Part shown: positions 17,193-62,849 of the stretch, piece by piece
How the letters are laid out: each line of letters opens with the position of its first letter
How positions within the stretch are numbered: position 1 is the stretch's first letter
Origin: Aggregatilineales bacterium
GTDB lineage: Bacteria; Chloroflexota; Anaerolineae; Aggregatilineales; J027
NCBI GenBank assembly: GCA_965215855.1
Contig: CBDCER010000003.1
Span: 3,467,201-3,531,200 of the forward strand
DNA: 64,000 nt
Reading direction: 5' to 3'
Program-made: the position numbers and the translations under genes
Notes under the pieces: model-generated
What the model was told of the DNA's origin: nothing
Seen by the model: the letters and a program-made list of their open reading frames with translations, nothing else
Database searches by the model: none

Positions 17193-18239
17193 CTACATTT
17201 CGGGCGTATCATCTTCCTGCACTAAATGAGCGTAGAGCGCTCGGACGGTTTCAATCGAGCGATGCCCCAGTAGTGCTTGAATATCTTCCAGCGAATGGCC
17301 GCTTTGAATGAGTTGAAGCGCCCGCCAGTGCCGAAAATCCTGGGGAGAGACATCGGGTAACCCAACAGCTCGTGCCGCCCGTCGCACTACGCGCCAGGCC
17401 ACAATGCGACTCATCCGACTGCCATCGTAACGTGGGTCATGGCTGATGAACAAGGGATATTCCACATCTGTTGGTGTTATATCACGACGTTGTACATAAT
17501 CTCGAATTGCTGGTAGGGCGCTTTTCAGATTAAGTTGATAACGATGGCCGCTTTTCCCGATGACGTCTACATTGATTACGGATCTTGCACTCATGTTATG
17601 TCTACTAAACGCGCCCACATCCAGACTAAGCAATTCGCTGATGCGACCACCTGTCTCAGCCAGGCAGTGTAGCAAAGCCCGATTGCGAAGCCGCGTGAGT
17701 TCCCAACGTTCGAGGCGGTGACTTGCGCCGGGTTTCAGCATAGATTTGGGTGGTTTTTGTGTATCGTAGTAGCCAACAACTGCTGCTAGGTCTTCGATTG
17801 GGCTAACTGCTTTTTCATCGTCACGGTGCTGCGTTTTCAGTCGATCCCGAACCAAGCCACTGACTTTGGCGACTGGGAATTCAGGGGATAGCCACTCGTG
17901 TTGTTCCATAAACTGAAGCCAGTGTTGCACGCCAGCCACTCGTAATTCCACTGTTGCCAGCGCATAAGGACGCCGGTCATTGCCGGAACCTGGCGACATC
18001 AACCACTCGGCAAATTGCAGCAACAGGGGGGTGTCGCTTTCGGAAAAGACAGTTGGCGACAGTTCTTGTGGTGTGGCGAATGTGTGCCGATGAACGGCAA
18101 GCTCCTGGCTACGGTCTGCCAGAAATGTAAAGAATAGCTCAATTGAGCGCATATATGCCGACAATGTATGGCTGGATTTCAGGTCAGCCCGATTGATATA
18201 TTGACGGAAACATTCATCAAGCGTAGCAGGTTGGCTCAA
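17193..18239 (-). CDS. tyrosine-type site-specific recombinase/integrase
   Basis: 348 aa with a TTG start. N-terminal SAM-like core-binding region. The catalytic region has ETGGRISELLSL (Arg), FRHWRA (HxxR), LLGHRS (His) and the terminal Tyr in RALYAHL. Confidence 0.85.
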   Translation of the reverse strand: MSQPATLDECFRQYINRADLKSSHTLSAYMRSIELFFTFLADRSQELAVHRHTFATPQELSPTVFSESDTPLLLQFAEWLMSPGSGNDRRPYALATVELRVAGVQHWLQFMEQHEWLSPEFPVAKVSGLVRDRLKTQHRDDEKAVSPIEDLAAVVGYYDTQKPPKSMLKPGASHRLERWELTRLRNRALLHCLAETGGRISELLSLDVGAFSRHNMSARSVINVDVIGKSGHRYQLNLKSALPAIRDYVQRRDITPTDVEYPLFISHDPRYDGSRMSRIVAWRVVRRAARAVGLPDVSPQDFRHWRALQLIQSGHSLEDIQALLGHRSIETVRALYAHLVQEDDTPEM

Positions 18240-19607: not shown

Positions 19608-21049
19608 CAATACCTTCGCCAAAAACGAGGGATTGAAAGGGCTTTAGTGTCGTGTAAAGTTGTCTACATAAACCGATGAAGACAAAAAGGCATGACGAAA
19701 AAAGCCCATGATTGATATTGTAACACTATTGCTCTGCTTTGAGGTACACCTATCACCAACAACCCTACGACAAATGAGCCGGATTATCCCAGCCATACTG
19801 GCGATGACAGGGCGGGTCACGATGCTGGGTATCTCACGATGGACAGATAAAGGGGGGAGCTATCGGACGATACAGCGGTTGTTCCACACAGTGCTACCGT
19901 GGGCAGAGATGCACTGGGCATTTTTTCGCCAACACGCCCTCAATCCGGAAGATGAGTACCTACTGGCCGGCGATGAATGGGTCGTGACAAAATCGGGCAA
20001 GAAGACCCATGGGGTGGATCGCTTCTTTTCAGGATTGTACGGCAAACCCGTGCCGGGCGTGGCATTCTTCGGACTATCACTGATAAGTATTGAGGAACGG
20101 CAAGCCTATCCAGGCATGGTGGAGCAACGGGTACGCAGTGAGGCTGAGAAAACGGCAGCCAAAGCCGCCAAGAAAAAGAGCAAGAAGAAGCGGAAAAGAG
20201 GCAAGCCCGGGCGTCCTAAGACCCAGGTGGAGTTGCCCCCAGAACTACAGCAGATTCAAGGCATGGTGCAGCGACAATTGGCACTGATCAAGGACACGAT
20301 TCAGGTGACTTATCTGGTGTTGGATGGTAAATTCGGCAACAACAATGCCCTGCAAATGACCCGGCAATGTGACGTGCATTTGATCTCCAAATTGCGTCAT
20401 GATGCGGCGTTGTATATACCCTATGTTGGCCCACAATCTAAATATGGTCAGCGTCGCAAATATGGTGATAAGCTCAACTATCATGCCATCCCGTCTGACT
20501 ATTTGAAGGAAACCACCCTGGAAGATGGTATCCAAACCCAGACCTTTCAGGCAACATTGCTTCACAAAGACTTCGCCCAACCCCTCAACGTCGTCATCAT
20601 CGTCAAAACAGACTTGAAAACAGGAAAACAGGCGCGTGTGATTTTGTTCAGCAGTGACCTCAGCCTATCTTATGAGCGCTTGATTGACTACTACAGCCTA
20701 CGCTTCCAGATTGAATTCATCTTCCGCGATGCCAAACAGCATTTCGGACTGGAAGACTTCATGAACGTCGCCGAGACAGCGGTCACCAATGCCGCCAACT
20801 TGTCTTTCTTGATGGTCACGCTCTCCCGTATCCTACGCCGCCTCCTTTTCCCTGATTATCCGGATGCCAGTATCCTTGATCTCAAAGCCCGCTTTCGTGG
20901 TCGCAAATATGTCGCTGAAACATTAAAATTACTTCCGGAAATCCCTGATCCTATTTTATTGGATCGTATCTTTTACACGGTGGCGTCTCTCGGTGCTATC
21001 CATACCGTTGCGTGCCACTCCGCCTCGTCATAATTTGGCGAAGGTATTG
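19608..21049 (+). mobile_element. Insertion sequence, copy 1 (IS701-like DDE element), intact
   Basis: 1442 bp. Perfect 16-bp terminal inverted repeats CAATACCTTCGCCAAA (19608-19623) and TTTGGCGAAGGTATTG (21034-21049). It is flanked by the 6-bp direct repeat ATAGAT (19602-19607 and 21050-21055). Confidence 0.9.
19708..21033 (+). CDS. DDE transposase (IS701/IS4-superfamily-like)
   Basis: 441 aa. LLAGDEWVVTKSGKKTHGVDRFFSG resembles the IS701-family first-D region (DxT..KKG...GV.RQY.G). It lacks the 7 residues GSKNKDK that are present in copies 2 and 3 (21-nt in-frame indel). The stop codon abuts the right inverted repeat. Confidence 0.85.
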   Translation: MIDIVTLLLCFEVHLSPTTLRQMSRIIPAILAMTGRVTMLGISRWTDKGGSYRTIQRLFHTVLPWAEMHWAFFRQHALNPEDEYLLAGDEWVVTKSGKKTHGVDRFFSGLYGKPVPGVAFFGLSLISIEERQAYPGMVEQRVRSEAEKTAAKAAKKKSKKKRKRGKPGRPKTQVELPPELQQIQGMVQRQLALIKDTIQVTYLVLDGKFGNNNALQMTRQCDVHLISKLRHDAALYIPYVGPQSKYGQRRKYGDKLNYHAIPSDYLKETTLEDGIQTQTFQATLLHKDFAQPLNVVIIVKTDLKTGKQARVILFSSDLSLSYERLIDYYSLRFQIEFIFRDAKQHFGLEDFMNVAETAVTNAANLSFLMVTLSRILRRLLFPDYPDASILDLKARFRGRKYVAETLKLLPEIPDPILLDRIFYTVASLGAIHTVACHSASS

Positions 21050-30000: not shown

Positions 30001-31903
30001 TGATGTTGGGCGCGACTCCACGCTGGGCAGCTTGCTCGAAGTCATTATCCGGCTCTTCCCAGAAAGCTATACACTCAACATTATGACGTTGTCGGGCTTG
30101 ACAGTCGCGATTGGACGTGTGGTTGATGACTCGATTGTGGTGTTGGAGAACATCTATCGCAATATCCAAAAAGGCGGTGACCAGCGCGAGGCGATCTTGC
30201 AAGGAACCCGCGAAGTCTCGGTGGCGATTTTCGCTGCGACCCTGACGACAATGGTCGTGTTCTTGCCGCTGGGACTGTTTGGTGGTGTGGTTGGTGCGTT
30301 CTTCTTACCCTTTGGCCTGGCAGTGACCTATTCGCTGGCTGGGTCGTATATCGTTGCCATTACGACGGTTCCGGCGCTGGCGCAAATCTTCATCACCAAA
30401 GAAACTATTCCGGCTGAAGGGCAGATCGAGATTACCGATGAGATGGCTGGATTTGAGCGTGGGTTGAATCACACCAAGAATGCGTTTATCAGTGGTGTGG
30501 ATCGCTTGAGCGCGGCATATAGTATCGCTATTCAATGGGTGTTGCGTAATCGCTTGATTACAATTGGCATTGCCCTGGCATCGCTGTTTTTTGGGATGTA
30601 CCTGCTTGGTAATCGGCCTCAACAGTTTCTCCCGAATTTTGGTGATCCGACCATTGCGGTTTCCGTAAATTTGCCTGCTGAGACTGAAGAGGGCCAACCC
30701 ATCACCGTCGCCTATACCGATGTGCGAGTGCGGCAATTAGAAGCGTATTTGCAACAATCTGGTGGCGAAATTGAATCGATCTTGACGTCAGTTGGCGGTG
30801 ATGCACTCTCCGGTGACTTCTTGGGTGGCACAGGCGAACTAGACGAGACCATTGCATCTATCCAGATTGGGATGCCCAGCCAGGAAGCTCTGGATGCTTT
30901 CTTGCCTGAATTACGAACCGAGGCCGAGGCCATTTTCGGCTCAGAGAATGTGCAGGTTTCAGGAGCCAGTACAGGTGGTGGATTTGGCGGCTTTGCGTTG
31001 GAATTGAGCGGACCTGAAGGCACAACTCTGCAAGATCTGGCAACCTATGATGATATTGTGTTGGAAACGCTCGGTGAAATCGACGGTTTAGTGAATATCG
31101 AAAGCACTTTGGCCGGTGCTGGTGATGAGGGTGAAACAACCTACATCCGTGTCGATGGCATACCGGCGATTCGTTATACGGCTGAACTGGAGAGCGAAGA
31201 TGCACTGGGTATCACGGCCATAGCGATTGAGAAGGTCGAAGATGCCGTTGCTAAGTTCCGCGAGGAGCATCAGGATACCCTGGATCTTTCTGCTGAAATC
31301 ACTGTTGGGCAGGGGTTCGAGTCTGAACAGCAGGTCGAAGGCTTCCGGCAGATTGGTGTCTCGATGTTAATTGCTACTTTCATCGTTTACCTATTGCTGG
31401 TATTTACCTTCGGCCATGCCATTCACCCCATTACGATCCTCGTCAGCTTGCCTCTATCGGTGGTAGGAGCCGCTGTCGCCTTGACGATTACGGGGCGTGC
31501 GCTTGGACTTTCGGCCATGATCGGGCTACTGATGTTGATTGGTATTGTGGTGACGAACGCAGTTGTGCTGCTGGATCGTGTGCAACAGAACCGGCGTGAG
31601 CGTGGCATGTCTACCTATGATGCACTGGTCGAGGCGGGGCGCGTGCGTCTGCGCCCGATTCTGATGACGGCTATCAGTACCACATTTGGTGTGTTGCCGC
31701 TGGCGCTTGGTTTTACTGAGGGCGCAATTATCGCGGCGGAATTGGGCACAGTCGTCATTGGTGGTTTGGTCAGCAGCACGTTCCTGACTTTGCTGGTGGT
31801 TCCGGTCGTTTATAGCCTGTTCGACTCGTTAATCCAGACAGTGTTGGGCATCTTTGGGCGTGGCAGCAAGTCTGGCCCGTTGGCGTCACCGGCCACTGAC
31901 TAA
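27026..31903 (+). CDS. RND-superfamily efflux permease (AcrB/HAE-type) with greatly expanded first extracytoplasmic loop
   Basis: The ORF starts at 26993. The ATG at 27026 has GGGAG 8 nt upstream. It has an AcrB-like N-terminus (RFRWITLAATLALIGLGAYSYTKLNQELIPAIEFPQ). TM2-6 fall around aa 950-1150 and TM7-12 around aa 1185-1620 in ORF-track numbering from 26993. It has the conserved AIGRVVDDSIVVLENI and LMLIGIVVTNAVVLLD motifs. Confidence 0.85.
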   Translation: MRRIFDSITRLSLRFRWITLAATLALIGLGAYSYTKLNQELIPAIEFPQTFIFSQNGGASSDNMLHMYGIPIEQAVDGVDGVVNTEATSRKGISFVIVRNEFGLQQSRIVDDIQAEIDAIPLPVRRLEPTSDMSVQDMVRELGPEHLAWLYTYAGDEDIAFEQQLDADVWASFSDEALLGFPEDVFETLESIIREDILARRSGATVASPDEPPVLPSSWSQQDPRFRTVADLAEMASTRNLAAVFNDFIEDGYVVGPLVHADDLSQADVQLFIEIENSCRDFRQRTGTLLPTDGSDPCSYIAYLDAEVILATFGEDGTVADWLPQGYLADLAPRDRNTLAQAALARDITGQEVPRSAEVELPDAWQAEAPQLLTFSLSDFALGAITISSSTLTDEELREYVEDDFVPRLKDLGLIADVRVVGGETIPSYVLNPELERVNLPTIDTNNNTTETDTSETGDDESDNENQTTDESTDAASGSDENECQLEPPVETDLEPVELPAPWALLPSFFGAEGFELTTTAHLVDLSYGACQYASSILNLMTSRPEAIGLITQLPEEAFVYLAAVEPNFLDNLNSAVIDILPEDIVRTLLRDYDARLGSSWEQLSSQDEMMQAGQRLTHVSDLVDYEGKAAQTLVNVVSFLHNGQFRELGDFCGLSREGFCEFAVLLINDLSSFAIEGIIDREPDFLTALASTESGQVVLSYFSQDAMKTTPVATFIDNLDDENLQQVLQAIRDGERLTAAESLQAERSAERIVDDSAPDLPSSWSPVGGFVGTPLERADDLLNVKLLPNYESAADFINFLSADPQGQNRIRELQFEAWDYLGNVQTHEEGFWSQLSTVTLRILASADFVDQLPPTVQERIAAGGEPFEPDEFVTRTNANSSLIITVFKDKDANTVASWDEVEAVLEDVRDDIDVFVPFEQSTFIEESLAGVQREGLTGAIMAIIVILVFMNLSIRSTLVTSVSIPTSVMTAFFLMEFVPSNVYALLSPILDDVGRDSTLGSLLEVIIRLFPESYTLNIMTLSGLTVAIGRVVDDSIVVLENIYRNIQKGGDQREAILQGTREVSVAIFAATLTTMVVFLPLGLFGGVVGAFFLPFGLAVTYSLAGSYIVAITTVPALAQIFITKETIPAEGQIEITDEMAGFERGLNHTKNAFISGVDRLSAAYSIAIQWVLRNRLITIGIALASLFFGMYLLGNRPQQFLPNFGDPTIAVSVNLPAETEEGQPITVAYTDVRVRQLEAYLQQSGGEIESILTSVGGDALSGDFLGGTGELDETIASIQIGMPSQEALDAFLPELRTEAEAIFGSENVQVSGASTGGGFGGFALELSGPEGTTLQDLATYDDIVLETLGEIDGLVNIESTLAGAGDEGETTYIRVDGIPAIRYTAELESEDALGITAIAIEKVEDAVAKFREEHQDTLDLSAEITVGQGFESEQQVEGFRQIGVSMLIATFIVYLLLVFTFGHAIHPITILVSLPLSVVGAAVALTITGRALGLSAMIGLLMLIGIVVTNAVVLLDRVQQNRRERGMSTYDALVEAGRVRLRPILMTAISTTFGVLPLALGFTEGAIIAAELGTVVIGGLVSSTFLTLLVVPVVYSLFDSLIQTVLGIFGRGSKSGPLASPATD

Positions 31904-57806: not shown

Positions 57807-57878
57807 GTTGCGTTCCTTTAATTTTGCGCGTTTCTGTACAAATTTCTTGACTTTAATTAAGTATAGCAAGTGTTCGTT

Positions 57879-59340
57879 CAATACCTTCGCCAAAAATGAG
57901 GGATTGAAAGGGCTTTAGCGTCGTGTAAAGTTGTTTGCGTAAACATCAAAGCCAACAAGACATGACGAAGAAAGCCCATGATTGATATTGTAACACTTTT
58001 GCTCTGCCTTGAGGCACACGTATCGCCAACAACCATACGACAACTGAGCCGGATTATCCCAGCTATTCTAGCGATGACGGGGCGGGTCACGATGCTGGGT
58101 ATTTCACGGTGGGCCGACAAGGGCGGGAGCTATCGGACGATACAGCGATTGTTCCACACGGTGCTACCTTGGGCAGACCTGCATTGGACATTTTTTCGCC
58201 AACACGCACTCAACCCAGCAGATGAGTACCTATTGGCAGGCGATGAATGCGTCGTAACGAAATCCGGCAAGAAGACGCATGGGGTAGATCGCTTCTTTTC
58301 GGGATTGTACGGGAAACCAGTGCCGGGCGTGGCGTTCTTCGGACTATCACTGATTAGTACTGAGGAACGGCGGGCCTATCCGAGCATGGTGGAGCAACGG
58401 GTACGAAGCGAAGCCGAAAAGACAGCGGCCAAAGCAGTCAAGAAAAAGACCAAGAAGAAACAGAAAAGAGGCAAGCCAGGACGTCCCAAAGGCAGTAAGA
58501 ACAAGGATAAGACCCAGGTGGAACTGACACCGGAATTACAACAAATTCAACAGATGGTGCAACGGCAATTGGCACTTATCAAGGATACGATCAAGGTGAC
58601 TTATCTGGTACTGGATGGGAAGTTTGGCAACAATAATGCCCTGCAAATGACCCGACAATGTGACTTGCACCTGATTTCCAAAATGCGCTATGACGCGGCG
58701 TTGTACATCCCCTATGCTGGCCCACAACTGCCGCGTGGTCAGCGGCGCAAGTATGGTGATAAGATCAACTATCAGGCTATTCCCGATGATTACTTGAAGG
58801 AAACCACCCTGGAAGATGGTATCCAAACCCAAACCTTCCAGGCAACGTTGCTCCACAAAGACTTCGCTCAACCCCTCAATGTTGTTATCATTGTCAAAAC
58901 GAACCTGAAAACCGGTAAACAAGCGCGGGTGATCCTGTTCAGTAGTGACCTCAGCTTAACTTATGATCGCTTGATTGACTACTATAGCCTACGCTTCCAG
59001 ATTGAATTCAACTTCCGCGACGCCAAGCAGCACTGGGGTCTGGAAGACTTCATGAATGTCACCGAGACGGCGGTCACCAACGCCGCCAACTTGTCCCTCT
59101 TTATGGTCACCCTCGCACGGGTGCTGCTACGCCAACTCCATCCTCAGTATCCCGATGCCAGTGTCTTGGACCTCAAAGCCCTCTTTCGTGGTCGCAAATA
59201 TGTCGCTGAAACATTAAAATTACTTCCAGAAATCCCTGATCCTATTTTATTGGATCGTATCTTCAACACGGTGGCGTCTCTCGGTGCTATTCATACCACT
59301 GAACGCTGCCTCAATTCGCCATAATTTGGCGAAGGTATTG
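57879..59340 (+). mobile_element. Insertion sequence, copy 2 (same family as 19608..21049), intact
   Basis: 1462 bp with the same 16-bp terminal inverted repeats (57879-57894 and 59325-59340). It is flanked by the 6-bp direct repeat TTCGTT (57873-57878 and 59341-59346). Confidence 0.9.
57978..59324 (+). CDS. DDE transposase (IS701/IS4-superfamily-like), full length
   Basis: 448 aa, collinear with the copy-1 protein but retaining GSKNKDK. Multiple substitutions show the copies are diverged. Confidence 0.85.
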   Translation: MIDIVTLLLCLEAHVSPTTIRQLSRIIPAILAMTGRVTMLGISRWADKGGSYRTIQRLFHTVLPWADLHWTFFRQHALNPADEYLLAGDECVVTKSGKKTHGVDRFFSGLYGKPVPGVAFFGLSLISTEERRAYPSMVEQRVRSEAEKTAAKAVKKKTKKKQKRGKPGRPKGSKNKDKTQVELTPELQQIQQMVQRQLALIKDTIKVTYLVLDGKFGNNNALQMTRQCDLHLISKMRYDAALYIPYAGPQLPRGQRRKYGDKINYQAIPDDYLKETTLEDGIQTQTFQATLLHKDFAQPLNVVIIVKTNLKTGKQARVILFSSDLSLTYDRLIDYYSLRFQIEFNFRDAKQHWGLEDFMNVTETAVTNAANLSLFMVTLARVLLRQLHPQYPDASVLDLKALFRGRKYVAETLKLLPEIPDPILLDRIFNTVASLGAIHTTERCLNSP

Positions 59341-59596
59341 TTCGTTGTGAAAGGTTTTTTTGCAAATATGTGGCGGGAATTTTCTGAGAAGTCGCGCATG
59401 AAATGAATGCGAAAATGCGTGAAAAACGGGGGCAAAAGTCGGTCAAAACCTTGACAAAATGCGACAAACTGACACCAAATTAGTCAGGTTTTGAGGCAAG
59501 GTCTGGTCTGAATGCACACATCTGGCGACAGTTCGGGTGTGGATTGAAAACCAGAGTGAGTGCGACTTCTTGCCGCACTCTTATGTTACAGAAATG

Positions 59597-60196
59597 TCAA
59601 TTGGGGAGGTTGCTCTGAATCTGCGATACAAGTTCATCAGTTTCAACGTACATGACACCACCATTCTCTGGCGCACCGTAGTCGCGTATCCAGGCAACCG
59701 TGCCATCGGTATTAACCAGAATGAAGGTGTGGCCGGGTTCGCCACTGGGAACGGCCCATTGCAATACATCATAGTCAGCCGATACTTGTTGCGTGGTATC
59801 GGTTAGTAGCGGAATAGTGATGTTCAGGTCTGCTCTCGCCGCCGCCAGTTCTTCGGGAGAATCGAAGGCGATGCTGACGAAAGCGACGTTCAGTGCCTGG
59901 AATTCCGGATCATTTTGCAGATCAACGATCTGCGTCAGGCATGGCGGTCAACCGACGGCCATGTGGAAGTAGAGCAAAACGGGCTGTTGGCCTTTGTATT
60001 CAGCCAGGGATACAGTTCCGCCGCTGGCAGCAGGCAGCGCGAAATCTGGGGCTTCATCACCGACCGCTAGGTTTTGGGATTGTACAGGCGAATTCGACTC
60101 ATTGGTGTCTTCGGAGTCGTCATCACCGCAACCTGCCATTACAAAGCCAAGTAAGGTTAGCAAGGCCAGTAAAGATAGTAAGGGGATTTTTCTCAT
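59597..60196 (-). CDS. thioredoxin-fold (TlpA/redoxin-like) lipoprotein with in-frame TGA at the first position of the CPPC motif: candidate selenoprotein (alternatively a nonsense pseudogene)
   Basis: It has a lipobox LLGFVMAGC. VGDEAPDFALPAASGGTVSLAEYKGQQPVLLYFHMAVG-TGA-PPCLTQIVDLQ... is followed by 117 further sense codons in the same frame, to the TGA at 59597-59599 (hand translated). The internal TGA is at 59948-59950. Confidence 0.55.
59917..59933 (-). promoter_or_regulatory. SECIS-like hairpin downstream of the in-frame UGA
   Basis: On the mRNA the hairpin is GCAGAUC-GUU-GAUCUGC, a perfect 7-bp stem with a 3-nt G/U-containing loop. It begins 14 nt after the UGA. Confidence 0.45.
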
Positions 60197-60280
60197 GAAG
60201 TAGGTATCCTTAAAACTACATTGCCTCCAAGAAATCAGATTGTAAGGAATATTTCGCCAAAGAAAAGATGGATTCCGTTC

Positions 60281-60949
60281 TTAATGTTGGGCTAATGTGA
60301 ATGGCACGGCAAGTGGATCCAATTTGTCTGGATAGCCCTCAGCACGATAGCCCATGATGAATCCGGTATGCTGCTCGACTGAAAACGGCCAGGGAGTGAC
60401 ATGAATCCGACCGCTTTCGAGAATTTCATAGCTAAGTTCACAGGTTTTGAGGTTGTCGCGCTGGAAGTTGACGGATACTTGGGCCGTCGTTGGCGCTTCA
60501 AATGATAAATGGAATGCGACCATATCACAGAAATCGGTGATGGAATCCGCCCAACGGAAGTCATTGGGTGTCCAGTCTGTTTGGGCAATACACTCGGCGA
60601 TGCGGGTATCTAGATCATCAGCCAGTTGGCGTCTATCTAGGGTATCTTGATGCCCAACCAGCCGCCGGACATGGCTGAAGACTATCGCATCGACTACTGG
60701 ATCATTGCTGCCATAGTTCAATGCCTTTTGTTTGATCGCCAGCCATGTTGAAGCATCCATGCCCATGATGGGATGGTTGTCGATCAGATCATATTCACGG
60801 TCGTGCAGAAGGACGCCATTGATGAATGAGGCAAAAGGCAGGACAGGACGATCAAACGCATCACTGCCCCATAGCATGGCTAATGTGCCAGCCAGCCGGG
60901 CATGTTCAGATTGTGGGATAATCACATTGCGGATTTTGGATCGGAACAT
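60281..60949 (-). CDS. hypothetical protein, HD-like metal-site pattern (possibly DUF3891-like)
   Basis: 222 aa. N-terminal IPQSEHARLAG ... GVLLHDREYD gives an H...HD arrangement. The family name is from memory only. Confidence 0.45.
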   Translation of the reverse strand: MFRSKIRNVIIPQSEHARLAGTLAMLWGSDAFDRPVLPFASFINGVLLHDREYDLIDNHPIMGMDASTWLAIKQKALNYGSNDPVVDAIVFSHVRRLVGHQDTLDRRQLADDLDTRIAECIAQTDWTPNDFRWADSITDFCDMVAFHLSFEAPTTAQVSVNFQRDNLKTCELSYEILESGRIHVTPWPFSVEQHTGFIMGYRAEGYPDKLDPLAVPFTLAQH

Positions 60950-61291: not shown

Positions 61292-61308
61292 AAACCCATC
61301 ATAGCATA

Positions 61309-62772
61309 CAATACCTTCGCCAAATTATGGCGAGGTGGAGTGACACGCAACGGTATGGATAGCACCGAGAGATGCCACCGTGCTAAAGATGCGATCCAAT
61401 AAAATAGGATCAGGGATTTCCGGAAGTAATTTTAATGTTTCAGTGACATATTTGCGACCACGAAAGCGGGCTTTGAGATCAAGGATACTGGCATCCGGAT
61501 AATCTGGGAAAAGGAGGCGGCGTAGGATACGGGAGAGCGTGACCATCAAGAAAGATAAGTTGGCAGCGTTAGTGACCGCTGTCTCAGCGACATTCATGAA
61601 ATCTTCCAATCCGAAATGCTGTTTGGCATCGCGGAAGATGAACTCAATCTGGAAGCGCAGGCTGTAGTAGTCAATCAAGCGATCATAAGTTAGGTTGAGG
61701 TCACTGCTGAACAAAATCACACGCGCCTGTTTCCCTGTTTTCAAGTCTGTTTTGACGATGATAACGACGTTGAGGGGTTGGGCGAAGTCTTTGTGAAGCA
61801 ATGTTGCCTGAAAGGTCTGGGTTTGGATATCATCTTCCAGGGTGGTTTCCTTCAACTAGTCAGACGGGATAGCCTGATAGTTGAGCTTATCACCATATTT
61901 GCGACGTTGACCATACTTAGATTGTGGGCCAGCATAGGGTATATACAACGCCGCATCATGACGCAATTTGGAGATCAAATGCACGTCACATTGCCGGGTC
62001 ATTTGCAGGGCATTGTTGTTGCCGAACTTACCATCCAACACCAAATAAGTCACCTTAATCGTGTCCTTGAGCAATGCCAATTGTCGCTGCACCATGCACT
62101 GAATCTGCTGTAGCTCCGGGGTCAACGCCACCTGTGTCTTATCCTTGTTCTTACTGCCTTTGGGACGTCCAGGCTTGCCTCTTTTTCGCTTCTTCTTGGT
62201 CTTTTTCTTGGCTGCTTTGGCGGCTCTTTTCTCAGCCTCACTGCGTACCCGTTGCTCCACCATGCCCGGATAGGCTTGCCGTTCTTCAATACTTATCAGT
62301 GATAGCCCGAAGAATGCCACGCCCGACACTGGTTTCCCGTACAATCCCGAAAAGAAGCGATCCACCCCATGGGTCTTCTTGCCCGATTTTGTCACGACGC
62401 ATTCATCGCCGGCCAGTAGGTACTCATCTTCCGGGTTGAGGGCGTGTTGGCGAAAAAATGCCCAATGCATCTCTGCCCACGGTAGCACTGTGTGGAACAA
62501 CCGCTGTATCGTCCGATAGCTCCCGCCTTTATCAGTCCATCGTGAGATACCCAGCATCGTAATCCGCCCTGTCATCGCCAGCATGGCTGGGATAATCCGG
62601 CCCATTTGTCGTAGGGTTGTCGGCGATAGGTGTGCCTCAAAGCAGAGCAATAGTGTTACAATATCAATCATGGGCTTTTTTCGTCATGCCTTTTTGTCTT
62701 CATGCGTTTATGTAGACAACTTTACACGACACTAAAGCCCTTTTAATCCCTCATTTTTTGGCGAAGGTATTG
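61309..62772 (-). mobile_element. Insertion sequence, copy 3 (inverted relative to copies 1 and 2), transposase inactivated
   Basis: 1464 bp with the same 16-bp terminal inverted repeats (61309-61324 and 62757-62772). It is flanked by the 6-bp direct repeat AGCATA (61303-61308 and 62773-62778). Confidence 0.9.
61325..62671 (-). pseudogene. DDE transposase pseudogene (single in-frame nonsense codon)
   Basis: The two ORF-track pieces (61856..62671 and 61325..61855) are contiguous and in the same frame. ...AIPSD-TAG-LKETTLED corresponds to ...AIPSDYLKETTLED in copy 1, a TAT>TAG change at 61856-61858. Confidence 0.85.
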
Positions 62773-62849
62773 AGCATATTTAGCGAATTTCGATGTTATA
62801 ATATGCTCATCGTTGATTAATAAGATGGGGATATGGCCCCAGGAAGGAC

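Follow-up and report, generated by a model that had tools for sequence, protein, structure and literature searches.

Comparative evidence for a predicted selenocysteine codon in a thioredoxin-fold lipoprotein gene of an Aggregatilineales bacterium

Whether a TGA codon in the middle of a lipoprotein gene marks the end of that gene, a mutation or a site of selenocysteine (Sec) insertion is the question raised by a locus on the minus strand of an Aggregatilineales genome (GenBank assembly GCA_965215855.1, contig CBDCER010000003.1). The stretch of DNA analysed, referred to as the window in the following, comprises 64,000 nt (positions 3,467,201 to 3,531,200 of the forward strand), and the gene in question lies at 59597-60196 of this window. 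A comparison of the codon and of an RNA hairpin downstream of it across the gene family suggests that the in-frame UGA is very likely read as Sec. As a whole, the locus is with high probability explained by a single 199-aa selenoprotein, which would act as a lipid-anchored extracytoplasmic reductase.

Translation of the minus strand from the ATG at 60196 gave MRKIPLLSLLALLTLLGFVMAGC…LLYFHMAVG, followed by TGA at 59950-59948 and then by PPCLTQIVDLQ…. Downstream of the in-frame TGA, 116 further codons are open until a second TGA is reached at 59599-59597, giving a total of 199 residues. The frame had been translated by hand in the original prediction, and re-translation to the second TGA reproduced both its coordinates and its residues. 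The parts of the gene are located as follows (positions in the window):

60207..60211, minus strand: AAGGA, resembling a Shine-Dalgarno site, 10 nt before the ATG at 60196-60194 (inferred from sequence)
59597..60196, minus strand: recoded lipoprotein gene, 199 codons (82 + Sec + 116) and then a terminal TGA; predicted Sec-containing peroxiredoxin (Prx)-like/redoxin lipoprotein
60128..60196, minus strand: signal peptide and lipobox (…LLGFVMAG-C23; Cys23 codon at 60130-60128), from the sequence and the N-termini of orthologues
59948..59950, minus strand: in-frame TGA, predicted Sec codon U83; TGA also at the homologous codon of 80/80 genome and 3 metagenome loci
59939..59950, minus strand: redox motif U-P-P-C (U83, C86), from the translation; a stop symbol followed by PPC in nearly all orthologues
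59917..59933, minus strand: hairpin GCAGAUC-GUU-GAUCUGC with a 7-bp stem and a GUU loop, from folding, RNAalifold and covariation
59723..59740, minus strand: invariant E-P-G-H-T-F loop, residues 153-158, from invariant columns in two alignments
59597..59599, minus strand: true stop TGA; orthologues end at the same place
59558..59580, minus strand: terminator-like stem-loop of 9 pairs (6 G-C) with a T-rich tail, 17 nt past the second TGA, from a consensus scan

The bridged 199-aa product matched the Pfam families AhpC-TSA (5.8e-27, residues 45-169) and Redoxin (1.5e-17), and because these matches, which cover residues 45-170, run through the TGA, the domain spans the stop. Orthologues align to the product over residues 1-197. 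All family-invariant residues are present in the window copy, and its frame is intact over 199 codons. The position of the terminator-like element agrees with a transcript covering all 199 codons of the frame.

The state of the codon was surveyed across the family. A protein search returned 441 relatives, and codons were read directly at 80 genomic loci from species-representative genomes (mostly metagenome-assembled genomes of Anaerolineae/Chloroflexota, with Acidimicrobiia/Actinomycetota as a second group). All 80 loci carry TGA at the Sec column, in the context …FHMAxG-TGA-CCN-CCN-TGY…, as do 3 further family loci from metagenomes (83/83 in total), and the downstream frame is always intact. 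Most of the 441 relatives are fragments of 112-115 aa that start at a Met located five codons past the TGA column (MQQIVDL…), and the NCBI and JGI records show an open reading frame (ORF) of 77-79 aa, a gap of 9 nt and then an ORF of 113-114 aa. These fragments of 77-79 and 112-115 aa recur because gene callers stop at the conserved TGA. Where full-length database entries such as P0001 have a “W” at the Sec column, it represents TGA translated under code 4. The true stops of the orthologues (n = 79) lie at the same place and are TAA in 29, TGA in 28 and TAG in 22 cases; since 28 of these 79 orthologues terminate in TGA, UGA is not reassigned genome-wide and its recoding is position-specific. 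Normal ORFs within the window also end at TGA. An exhaustive search of 1.84 billion representatives showed the family to be compact, 213 representatives being found at E ≤ 1e-3. An alignment of homologues had been named in the original prediction as the check that would show whether Cys or TGA occupies the column and whether the hairpin is kept; it returned TGA at each of the 80 loci and a hairpin that is conserved with covariation.

Two side observations were made during this survey. One family locus (L005, JAIWHF010000120.1) stems from a bin that carries the label Methanosarcinales archaeon; in sequence and in its SHOCT-like neighbour it agrees with the Anaerolineales loci, and the contig is probably mis-binned. 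A scan of metagenomes also yielded other types of selenoprotein from the AhpC/TSA superfamily, with the patterns FYRGxW-TGA-PYC (UxxC Prx-like) and …AFTGG-TGA-T… (TxxU peroxiredoxins), at the loci L091, L164; L113, L123, L130, L141-L143, L156, L157 and L165.

The hairpin in the mRNA starts 14 nt past the UGA, its loop starts 21 nt past the UGA, and its minimum free energy (MFE) is -8.1 kcal/mol when it is folded in isolation. In the model for bacterial Sec insertion sequence (SECIS) elements, termed bSECIS, the loop comprises 3-9 nt and the stem 4-16 bp, the distance from the UGA to the loop is 16-37 nt and the MFE is ≤ -7.5 kcal/mol (PMC13188914, Fig. 2 legend), with a G among the first two loop positions that is usually followed by G or U (PMC13188914). 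The window hairpin, with its 3-nt GUU loop, 7 bp, 21 nt and -8.1 kcal/mol, lies within all of these limits, and the 17-mer alone reaches the MFE threshold in 49 of 81 family members. It was thus found at the position and at the 14-nt distance given in the original prediction, where it had been described as SECIS-like, and its stem covaries.

Covariation was analysed in an alignment of 81 sequences. In total, 95.6% of the stem cells are paired, compared with 11-37% after a shift of the partner by one to three columns, and none of 500 shuffles reached the observed pairing or covariation score. Alignment pair 27-37 occurs as G-C (69 distinct sequences) or A-U (9), and pair 28-36 as A-U (69) or G-C (9), without one-sided or wobble intermediates in either case. 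At the codon level, the change of Gln CAG to CAA at pair 27-37 always occurs together with that of Leu CTG to TTG, both being synonymous, and the change of Ile ATC to Val GTC at pair 28-36 always occurs together with that of Asp GAT to GAC, of which the Asp change is synonymous. On a tree of the remaining protein sequence, parsimony placed about four independent events at each covarying pair. The third loop base, a Val wobble position, is free (GTG 34, GTT 30, GTC 16, GTA 1). RNAalifold recovered the same helix de novo from the alignment. An extended lower SECIS helix, seen in the MFE fold of the window, was rejected, as it is not conserved in the alignment fold. The outermost pair (alignment columns 24/40; window positions 59933/59917) is lost in 21 orthologues, which have CAA (Gln)…GAA (Glu); the A and G changes always occur together and never singly, and they may reflect shared ancestry or a tolerated A·G pair. 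The element resembles the E. coli fdhF-type SECIS and the consensus bSECIS in that a stem-loop follows closely behind the UGA within the coding sequence, with a small apical loop that opens with G-U and a spacing of 16-37 nt. Compared with the fdhF-type element, however, it is minimal, with a stem of 6-7 bp and a 3-nt loop, and neither a bulged U nor an extended lower helix is conserved.

Counterparts with a standard codon at the Sec column were used for comparison. A sister clade of full-length, transmembrane-anchored proteins (35-46% identity) has …EG(I/V/L)x-C-x-x-C… at this column and keeps the PGHTF loop. In two members of the sister clade, the codon is TGC and the equivalent 17-mer has a folding energy of 0.0 kcal/mol, though the peptide is still Q-I-V-(E/Q)-L-Q, and in a closer Cys form (P0100, GCEGC) there is a hairpin remnant of only -3.3 kcal/mol. 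As the Cys homologues keep the peptide without the fold, the stem tracks the TGA and not the protein sequence. The small cluster P0003 has a true TGG at the Sec column, several changed invariant residues and a degraded stem. The family member L081 (SMUX01365537.1, 2474-3028) shows this TGG (Trp), the degraded stem and the changed invariant residues; genes for MerR, a MerA-like reductase, cytochrome c and an HMA protein adjoin it, and it may have arisen by loss of Sec within a cluster for mercury/metal resistance.

The protein was assigned by its N-terminus, its model structure and its profile matches. Of the 77 orthologue N-termini that are complete, 63 contain a strict lipobox pattern (hydrophobic residues, A/G/S, Cys), and among the others most have L-x-A-C when inspected by eye. 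The AlphaFold2 model of the orthologue P0001 has a predicted local distance difference test (pLDDT) score of 84 overall and of >90 in the mature domain, and among solved structures Foldseek placed it closest to BCP/AhpE peroxiredoxins and to Etrx2, a lipoprotein thioredoxin of pneumococci (target-normalised TM-score ~0.8, identity ~20%). By sequence, the nearest solved proteins are the Prx-like protein 2ywn and ResA (~1e-9), and Sco1 (1e-5). The TGA had been placed in the original prediction at the nucleophilic first Cys of the redox motif, and this placement was supported: U83 aligns with the first Cys of ResA CEPC and of the CxxC in the Cys clade. In comparison with true peroxiredoxins, U83 corresponds to the catalytic Thr and C86 to the peroxidatic Cys. 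The EPGHTF loop takes what we assume to be the position of the thioredoxin cis-Pro loop/peroxiredoxin Arg, near the active site.

A score of 94.5 bits was obtained with PF00578 (gathering cut-off 26) and one of 37.9 bits with NCBIfam ResA (NF002854; cut-off 170), and none of the NCBIfam models scanned with the family protein reached its cut-off. The TlpA/ResA/redoxin domain of the original prediction therefore stood as far as a complete thioredoxin-fold redoxin domain is concerned, but the best match is AhpC/TSA (Prx-like) and not ResA. Judged by its alignments, the family forms a clade of its own within the thioredoxin-like superfamily, marked by the invariant motifs FHMAxGUPPC, EPGHTF and DYGAPENGGxMYV. 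A canonical peroxiredoxin was rejected because other residues stand at the positions of the Prx Pro, Thr and Arg: in place of PxxxTxxC, the family has FHMAVG-U-PPC, with Met for Pro and Sec for Thr, and the position of the Arg is taken by Gly155/His156 (inferred from the alignment of EPGHTF with AhpE RGTF). A Sco copper chaperone was likewise rejected, with a spacing of UxxC and not CxxxC and only a weak sequence match of 1e-5, the invariant His156 being present.

On this basis, the following course of events is proposed. The UGA at 59950-59948 would be decoded as Sec, with the GUU-loop hairpin acting as a bacterial SECIS that recruits SelB and Sec-tRNA(Sec), as comparative evidence suggests. 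For the window copy, this decoding rests on its perfect preservation in a family whose features need UGA to be Sec. The precursor would be exported, and a lipid attached to Cys23 would hold it at the outer surface of the cytoplasmic membrane. There, the selenol of U83 would be the attacking nucleophile and would form a selenenylsulfide with C86. The protein would thus resemble an extracytoplasmic reductase of the TlpA/ResA/ScsD type, re-reduced via a CcdA-type membrane electron transporter, and may protect or repair envelope thiols, or apocytochrome CxxCH, under copper stress; alternatively, it may bind metal directly. Most likely, the family consists of extracytoplasmic selenol/thiol reductases that were often recruited to copper handling, as far as sequence and gene order can tell.

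The copper link derives from a survey in which genes within 3 kb of the 80 loci were clustered. A P1B-type ATPase gene is located directly upstream on the same strand at 17 of the 80 loci. Its product has an E1-E2 ATPase domain and 2 HMA domains, and its assignment to the Cu(I) type is based on the motifs CPC, NX6YNX4P and PX6MX2SSX5N, as read in a representative sequence. A Met-rich c-type cytochrome gene lies directly downstream at 7/80 loci, and a gene for a small membrane protein further upstream at 10/80. CcdA (DsbD_TM) genes adjoin the Cys homologues P0100 and P0177, and DsbD_TM genes are present within the ±3-kb flanks of three Sec forms (L074 and L080, which are basal, and L026) and absent from the window and from most loci. 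Copper-induced envelope reductases with a thioredoxin fold are known from other bacteria: the TlpA-type reductase Cg3289 belongs to the copper stimulon of C. glutamicum and is copper-induced (PMC3140484), and ScsC and ScsD are found in Salmonella, of which ScsC binds Cu(I) (PMC10907172). The linkage of the family to copA and cytochrome c suggests a putative role in protecting envelope thiols or apocytochrome CxxCH under copper stress. A more far-reaching and rather doubtful proposal, made from gene order, is that copper defence in the envelope, or the biogenesis of copper proteins, may have a selenium-dependent arm in this family, whose extracytoplasmic Sec-Cys(-His) lipoprotein would work directly with the Cu(I) exporter CopA and a Met-rich cytochrome c. 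In such a system, Cu(I) could be captured on the selenolate, or envelope/apocytochrome thiols could be kept reduced under copper stress.

Further observations concern the surroundings of individual family members. In P0124 (JGI 3300067032), the Sec-family domain is fused to a C-terminal cytochrome c domain (CxxCH), and another TlpA-like redoxin gene follows; the fusion thereby joins two products whose genes are adjacent in 7 other genomes. A DUF166 gene is found near one Sec-family member (L168, 3599-4360) and a DUF1573 gene adjoins a Cys homologue (L172, 2305-2805); DUF166 and DUF1573 are both listed as selenoprotein families (2026 review).

In the window, the gene lies between two copies of an insertion sequence (IS), with one further gene upstream of it:

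57879..59340, plus strand: IS copy 1, DDE_5 / IS4-IS701-like, with an intact 448-aa transposase and its own 6-bp duplication TTCGTT (57873-57878, 59341-59346)
61309..62772, minus strand: IS copy 2, with its own 6-bp duplication AGCATA (61303-61308, 62773-62778)
60281..60949, minus strand: DUF3891 protein of 222 aa, upstream neighbour (Pfam DUF3891, 2.1e-12)

The two IS copies are 1.46 kb long, 85% identical and inverted relative to each other, and they have 16-bp terminal inverted repeats (CAATACCTTCGCCAAA). Their transposase resembles those of IS elements from cyanobacteria and Deinococcus plasmids (≤57% identity), and in copy 2 it is inactivated by an in-frame nonsense codon (Tyr to TAG, 61856-61858). 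The gene had been suspected in the original prediction to be mobile cargo bracketed by IS copies. The two flanking copies do exist, but a composite transposon carrying the gene was rejected, given the separate duplications, the differing outer flanks, the identity of 85% and the TAG codon in copy 2. Since each IS has a 6-bp target duplication of its own, two independent insertions into resident DNA are indicated. The window gene, a chromosomal copy standing by itself, came to lie between them by coincidence, and the G+C content of its region is the same as that of the surroundings. The DUF3891 protein was dismissed as a functional partner, as none of the 80 related loci has a homologue of it in its flanks, and in a blastn comparison of the window with related loci, the only match was the gene itself. 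Elsewhere, the window is rich in genes of mobile elements, including a further IS701-family transposase (19708-21033) and a XerC/XerD-like tyrosine recombinase (17193-18239). An ORF for an RND-type efflux permease (26993-31903) is unusually long (1636 aa) and has partial RND matches, suggesting a large insertion or a fusion.

Several observations weigh against a selenoprotein with a role in copper handling. Neither tRNA-Sec (ARAGORN, Rfam) nor SelA, SelB or SelD (20 large ORFs, NCBIfam) was detected in the 64-kb window, which is not expected to hold them; tRNA-Sec was also not found in 60 related loci, and only tRNA reached the gathering score in the Rfam scan of the window. A second selenoprotein candidate with an in-frame TGA was not found in the window either. 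The single-sequence statistics of the hairpin are weak (z = -1.6 for the 66-nt context, with 15 of 200 shuffles folding equally well), the mini-hairpins of 32 of the 81 orthologues are weaker than -7.5 kcal/mol, and the stem codes for the conserved peptide QQIVDLQ, so that part of its conservation is at the protein level. The copper link is seen in about a fifth of the loci only, many orthologues stand alone without such neighbours, and copA, cytochrome c and CcdA partners are absent from the window. That the hairpin goes beyond chance is concluded from the comparative evidence (TGA at 80/80 loci, stem covariation) and not from single-sequence folding.

The same comparative evidence speaks against the readings that dispense with Sec. 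The original prediction had offered a recent nonsense pseudogene as the alternative, that is, a mutation of a Cys (TGC/TGT) or Trp (TGG) codon next to a coincidental hairpin. TGA is indeed one base away from TGC, TGT and TGG, and the hairpin is unremarkable in the window alone, but TGA at the 80 genomic and all 83 family loci, from dozens of species, together with the compensatory changes in the stem, refutes this idea, whose probability is now close to nil. It is also highly improbable that UGA is read as Trp, Gly or Cys, through genome-wide reassignment or SECIS-independent read-through. Some pipelines do put W at the Sec column (code 4 in the case of P0001), and the UGA is followed here by C, UGA-C being a leaky context. 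Yet TGA ends 28 of the 79 orthologues, the window gene itself and normal ORFs of the window, the recoded position is the catalytic Cys column of the Cys homologues, and simple read-through has no use for a covarying G-U-loop stem at the distance of a SECIS.

The remaining alternatives accept Sec in the family and differ in what they make of the window copy or of the function. An inert copy, in a host without Sec machinery, would yield an 82-aa lipopeptide and be a decaying relic; this we consider improbable. It would agree with the lack of Sec machinery in the 64-kb window, with the IS-ridden stretch in which copA, cytochrome c and CcdA neighbours are missing, and with a closest orthologue that is only 68% identical. 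The copy has nevertheless retained an intact frame of 199 codons, all invariant residues and a perfect hairpin (-8.1 kcal/mol), and a start codon, a Shine-Dalgarno-like site and a terminator-like element are all present. Apparent loss of Sec elsewhere led to TGG or TGC and a decayed stem, neither of which is seen here, and the IS elements, having inserted independently around resident DNA, are no evidence of import; the G+C content matches that of the surroundings. A sizeable minority chance is given to a selenoprotein with another function, either a peroxidase in which C86 or U83 attacks the peroxide or a Cu(I)/Hg(II) chaperone of the Sco/ScsC-like kind that binds through Sec83, Cys86 and His156. 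A peroxidase would be in line with the peroxiredoxins as closest structures and the alignment of C86 with the peroxidatic Cys, but the catalytic Pro, Thr and Arg have become Met, Sec and Gly/His. For a chaperone speak the invariant His156, the His78-Met79 pair before the motif, neighbours such as copA, HMA and MerR/MerA-like genes, the weak Sco1 match (1e-5) and the binding of Cu(I) by ScsC (PMC10907172), whereas the motif has the spacing of CxxC and not of Sco CxxxC, and His78 is not conserved in basal members (FSMGPG). CcdA genes near basal members and Cys homologues would instead favour a reductase cycle, as assumed for the lipid-anchored reductase preferred here.

As a predicted selenoprotein, the family joins an already known kind, the bacterial thioredoxin-fold UxxC proteins of PF00578. 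UxxC selenoproteins of PF00578/PF08534 have been catalogued as “Prx-like thiol:disulfide oxidoreductase”, “Prx-like 1” and “Redoxin family protein” (PMC1794560; PMC2398784; PMC13188914). The family shares with these entries (Zhang & Gladyshev) the matches to PF00578 and PF08534, Sec as the first residue of UxxC on a thioredoxin fold, and prediction by comparative genomics only (PMC1794560; PMC2398784; PMC13188914); the comparison with the catalogue (representatives WP_010940744.1, HEU0032618.1) was made by Pfam family and by the description of the UxxC motif only. The Prx-like type from the metagenome scan, FYRGxW-U-PYC, has ~30% identity to the family, which has FHMAxG-U-PPC instead. Features of the family's own are the lipobox, EPGHTF, DYGAPENGG and the distribution in Anaerolineae/Acidimicrobiia. 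With the TlpA/ResA/CcmG/ScsD reductases, it has in common a membrane-anchored, extracytoplasmic thioredoxin fold, U at the first Cys of ResA CEPC, CcdA/DsbD_TM beside some members and a copper-export linkage as for Cg3289 and Scs. It differs from them in Sec for Cys, Gly and not Trp before the motif, P-G-H-T-F and not P-T-T/S-F, and a ResA score of 37.9 versus 170 bits. Peroxiredoxins (BCP/PrxQ, AhpE) are the best structural neighbours and belong to the same Pfam family; in contrast to Sec-containing Prx (TxxU, seen as the residues Thr-Gly-Gly followed by a stop symbol), however, the family has Sec at the Thr position (UxxC) and lacks the catalytic Pro, Thr and Arg.

For the genomes concerned, the finding primarily has consequences for annotation. 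In hundreds of Anaerolineae/Acidimicrobiia genomes, the NCBI and JGI pipelines annotate two short ORFs (“peroxiredoxin”, 113 aa) in place of one gene of this family, and a curated family model would restore one selenoprotein per genome and flag these genomes as Sec users. With its 6-7-bp stem, GUN triloop and clean synonymous covariation, the very compact SECIS may serve as a training case for predictors and as a small recoding cassette. The recurrent arrangement of copA, Sec-redoxin and cytochrome c points to a possible role of selenium in copper stress of the envelope, or in cuproprotein/cytochrome maturation, in monoderm Chloroflexota. If the copper-defence proposal were true, selenoproteins would gain a functional class of which no description exists as yet, and selenium would be linked to copper in Chloroflexota and Acidimicrobiia. 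The current picture of selenoproteins, in which thioredoxin-fold UxxC proteins are the commonest predicted class, is unchanged, and the main value of the finding lies in the correction of annotation and in the copA/cytochrome c lead.

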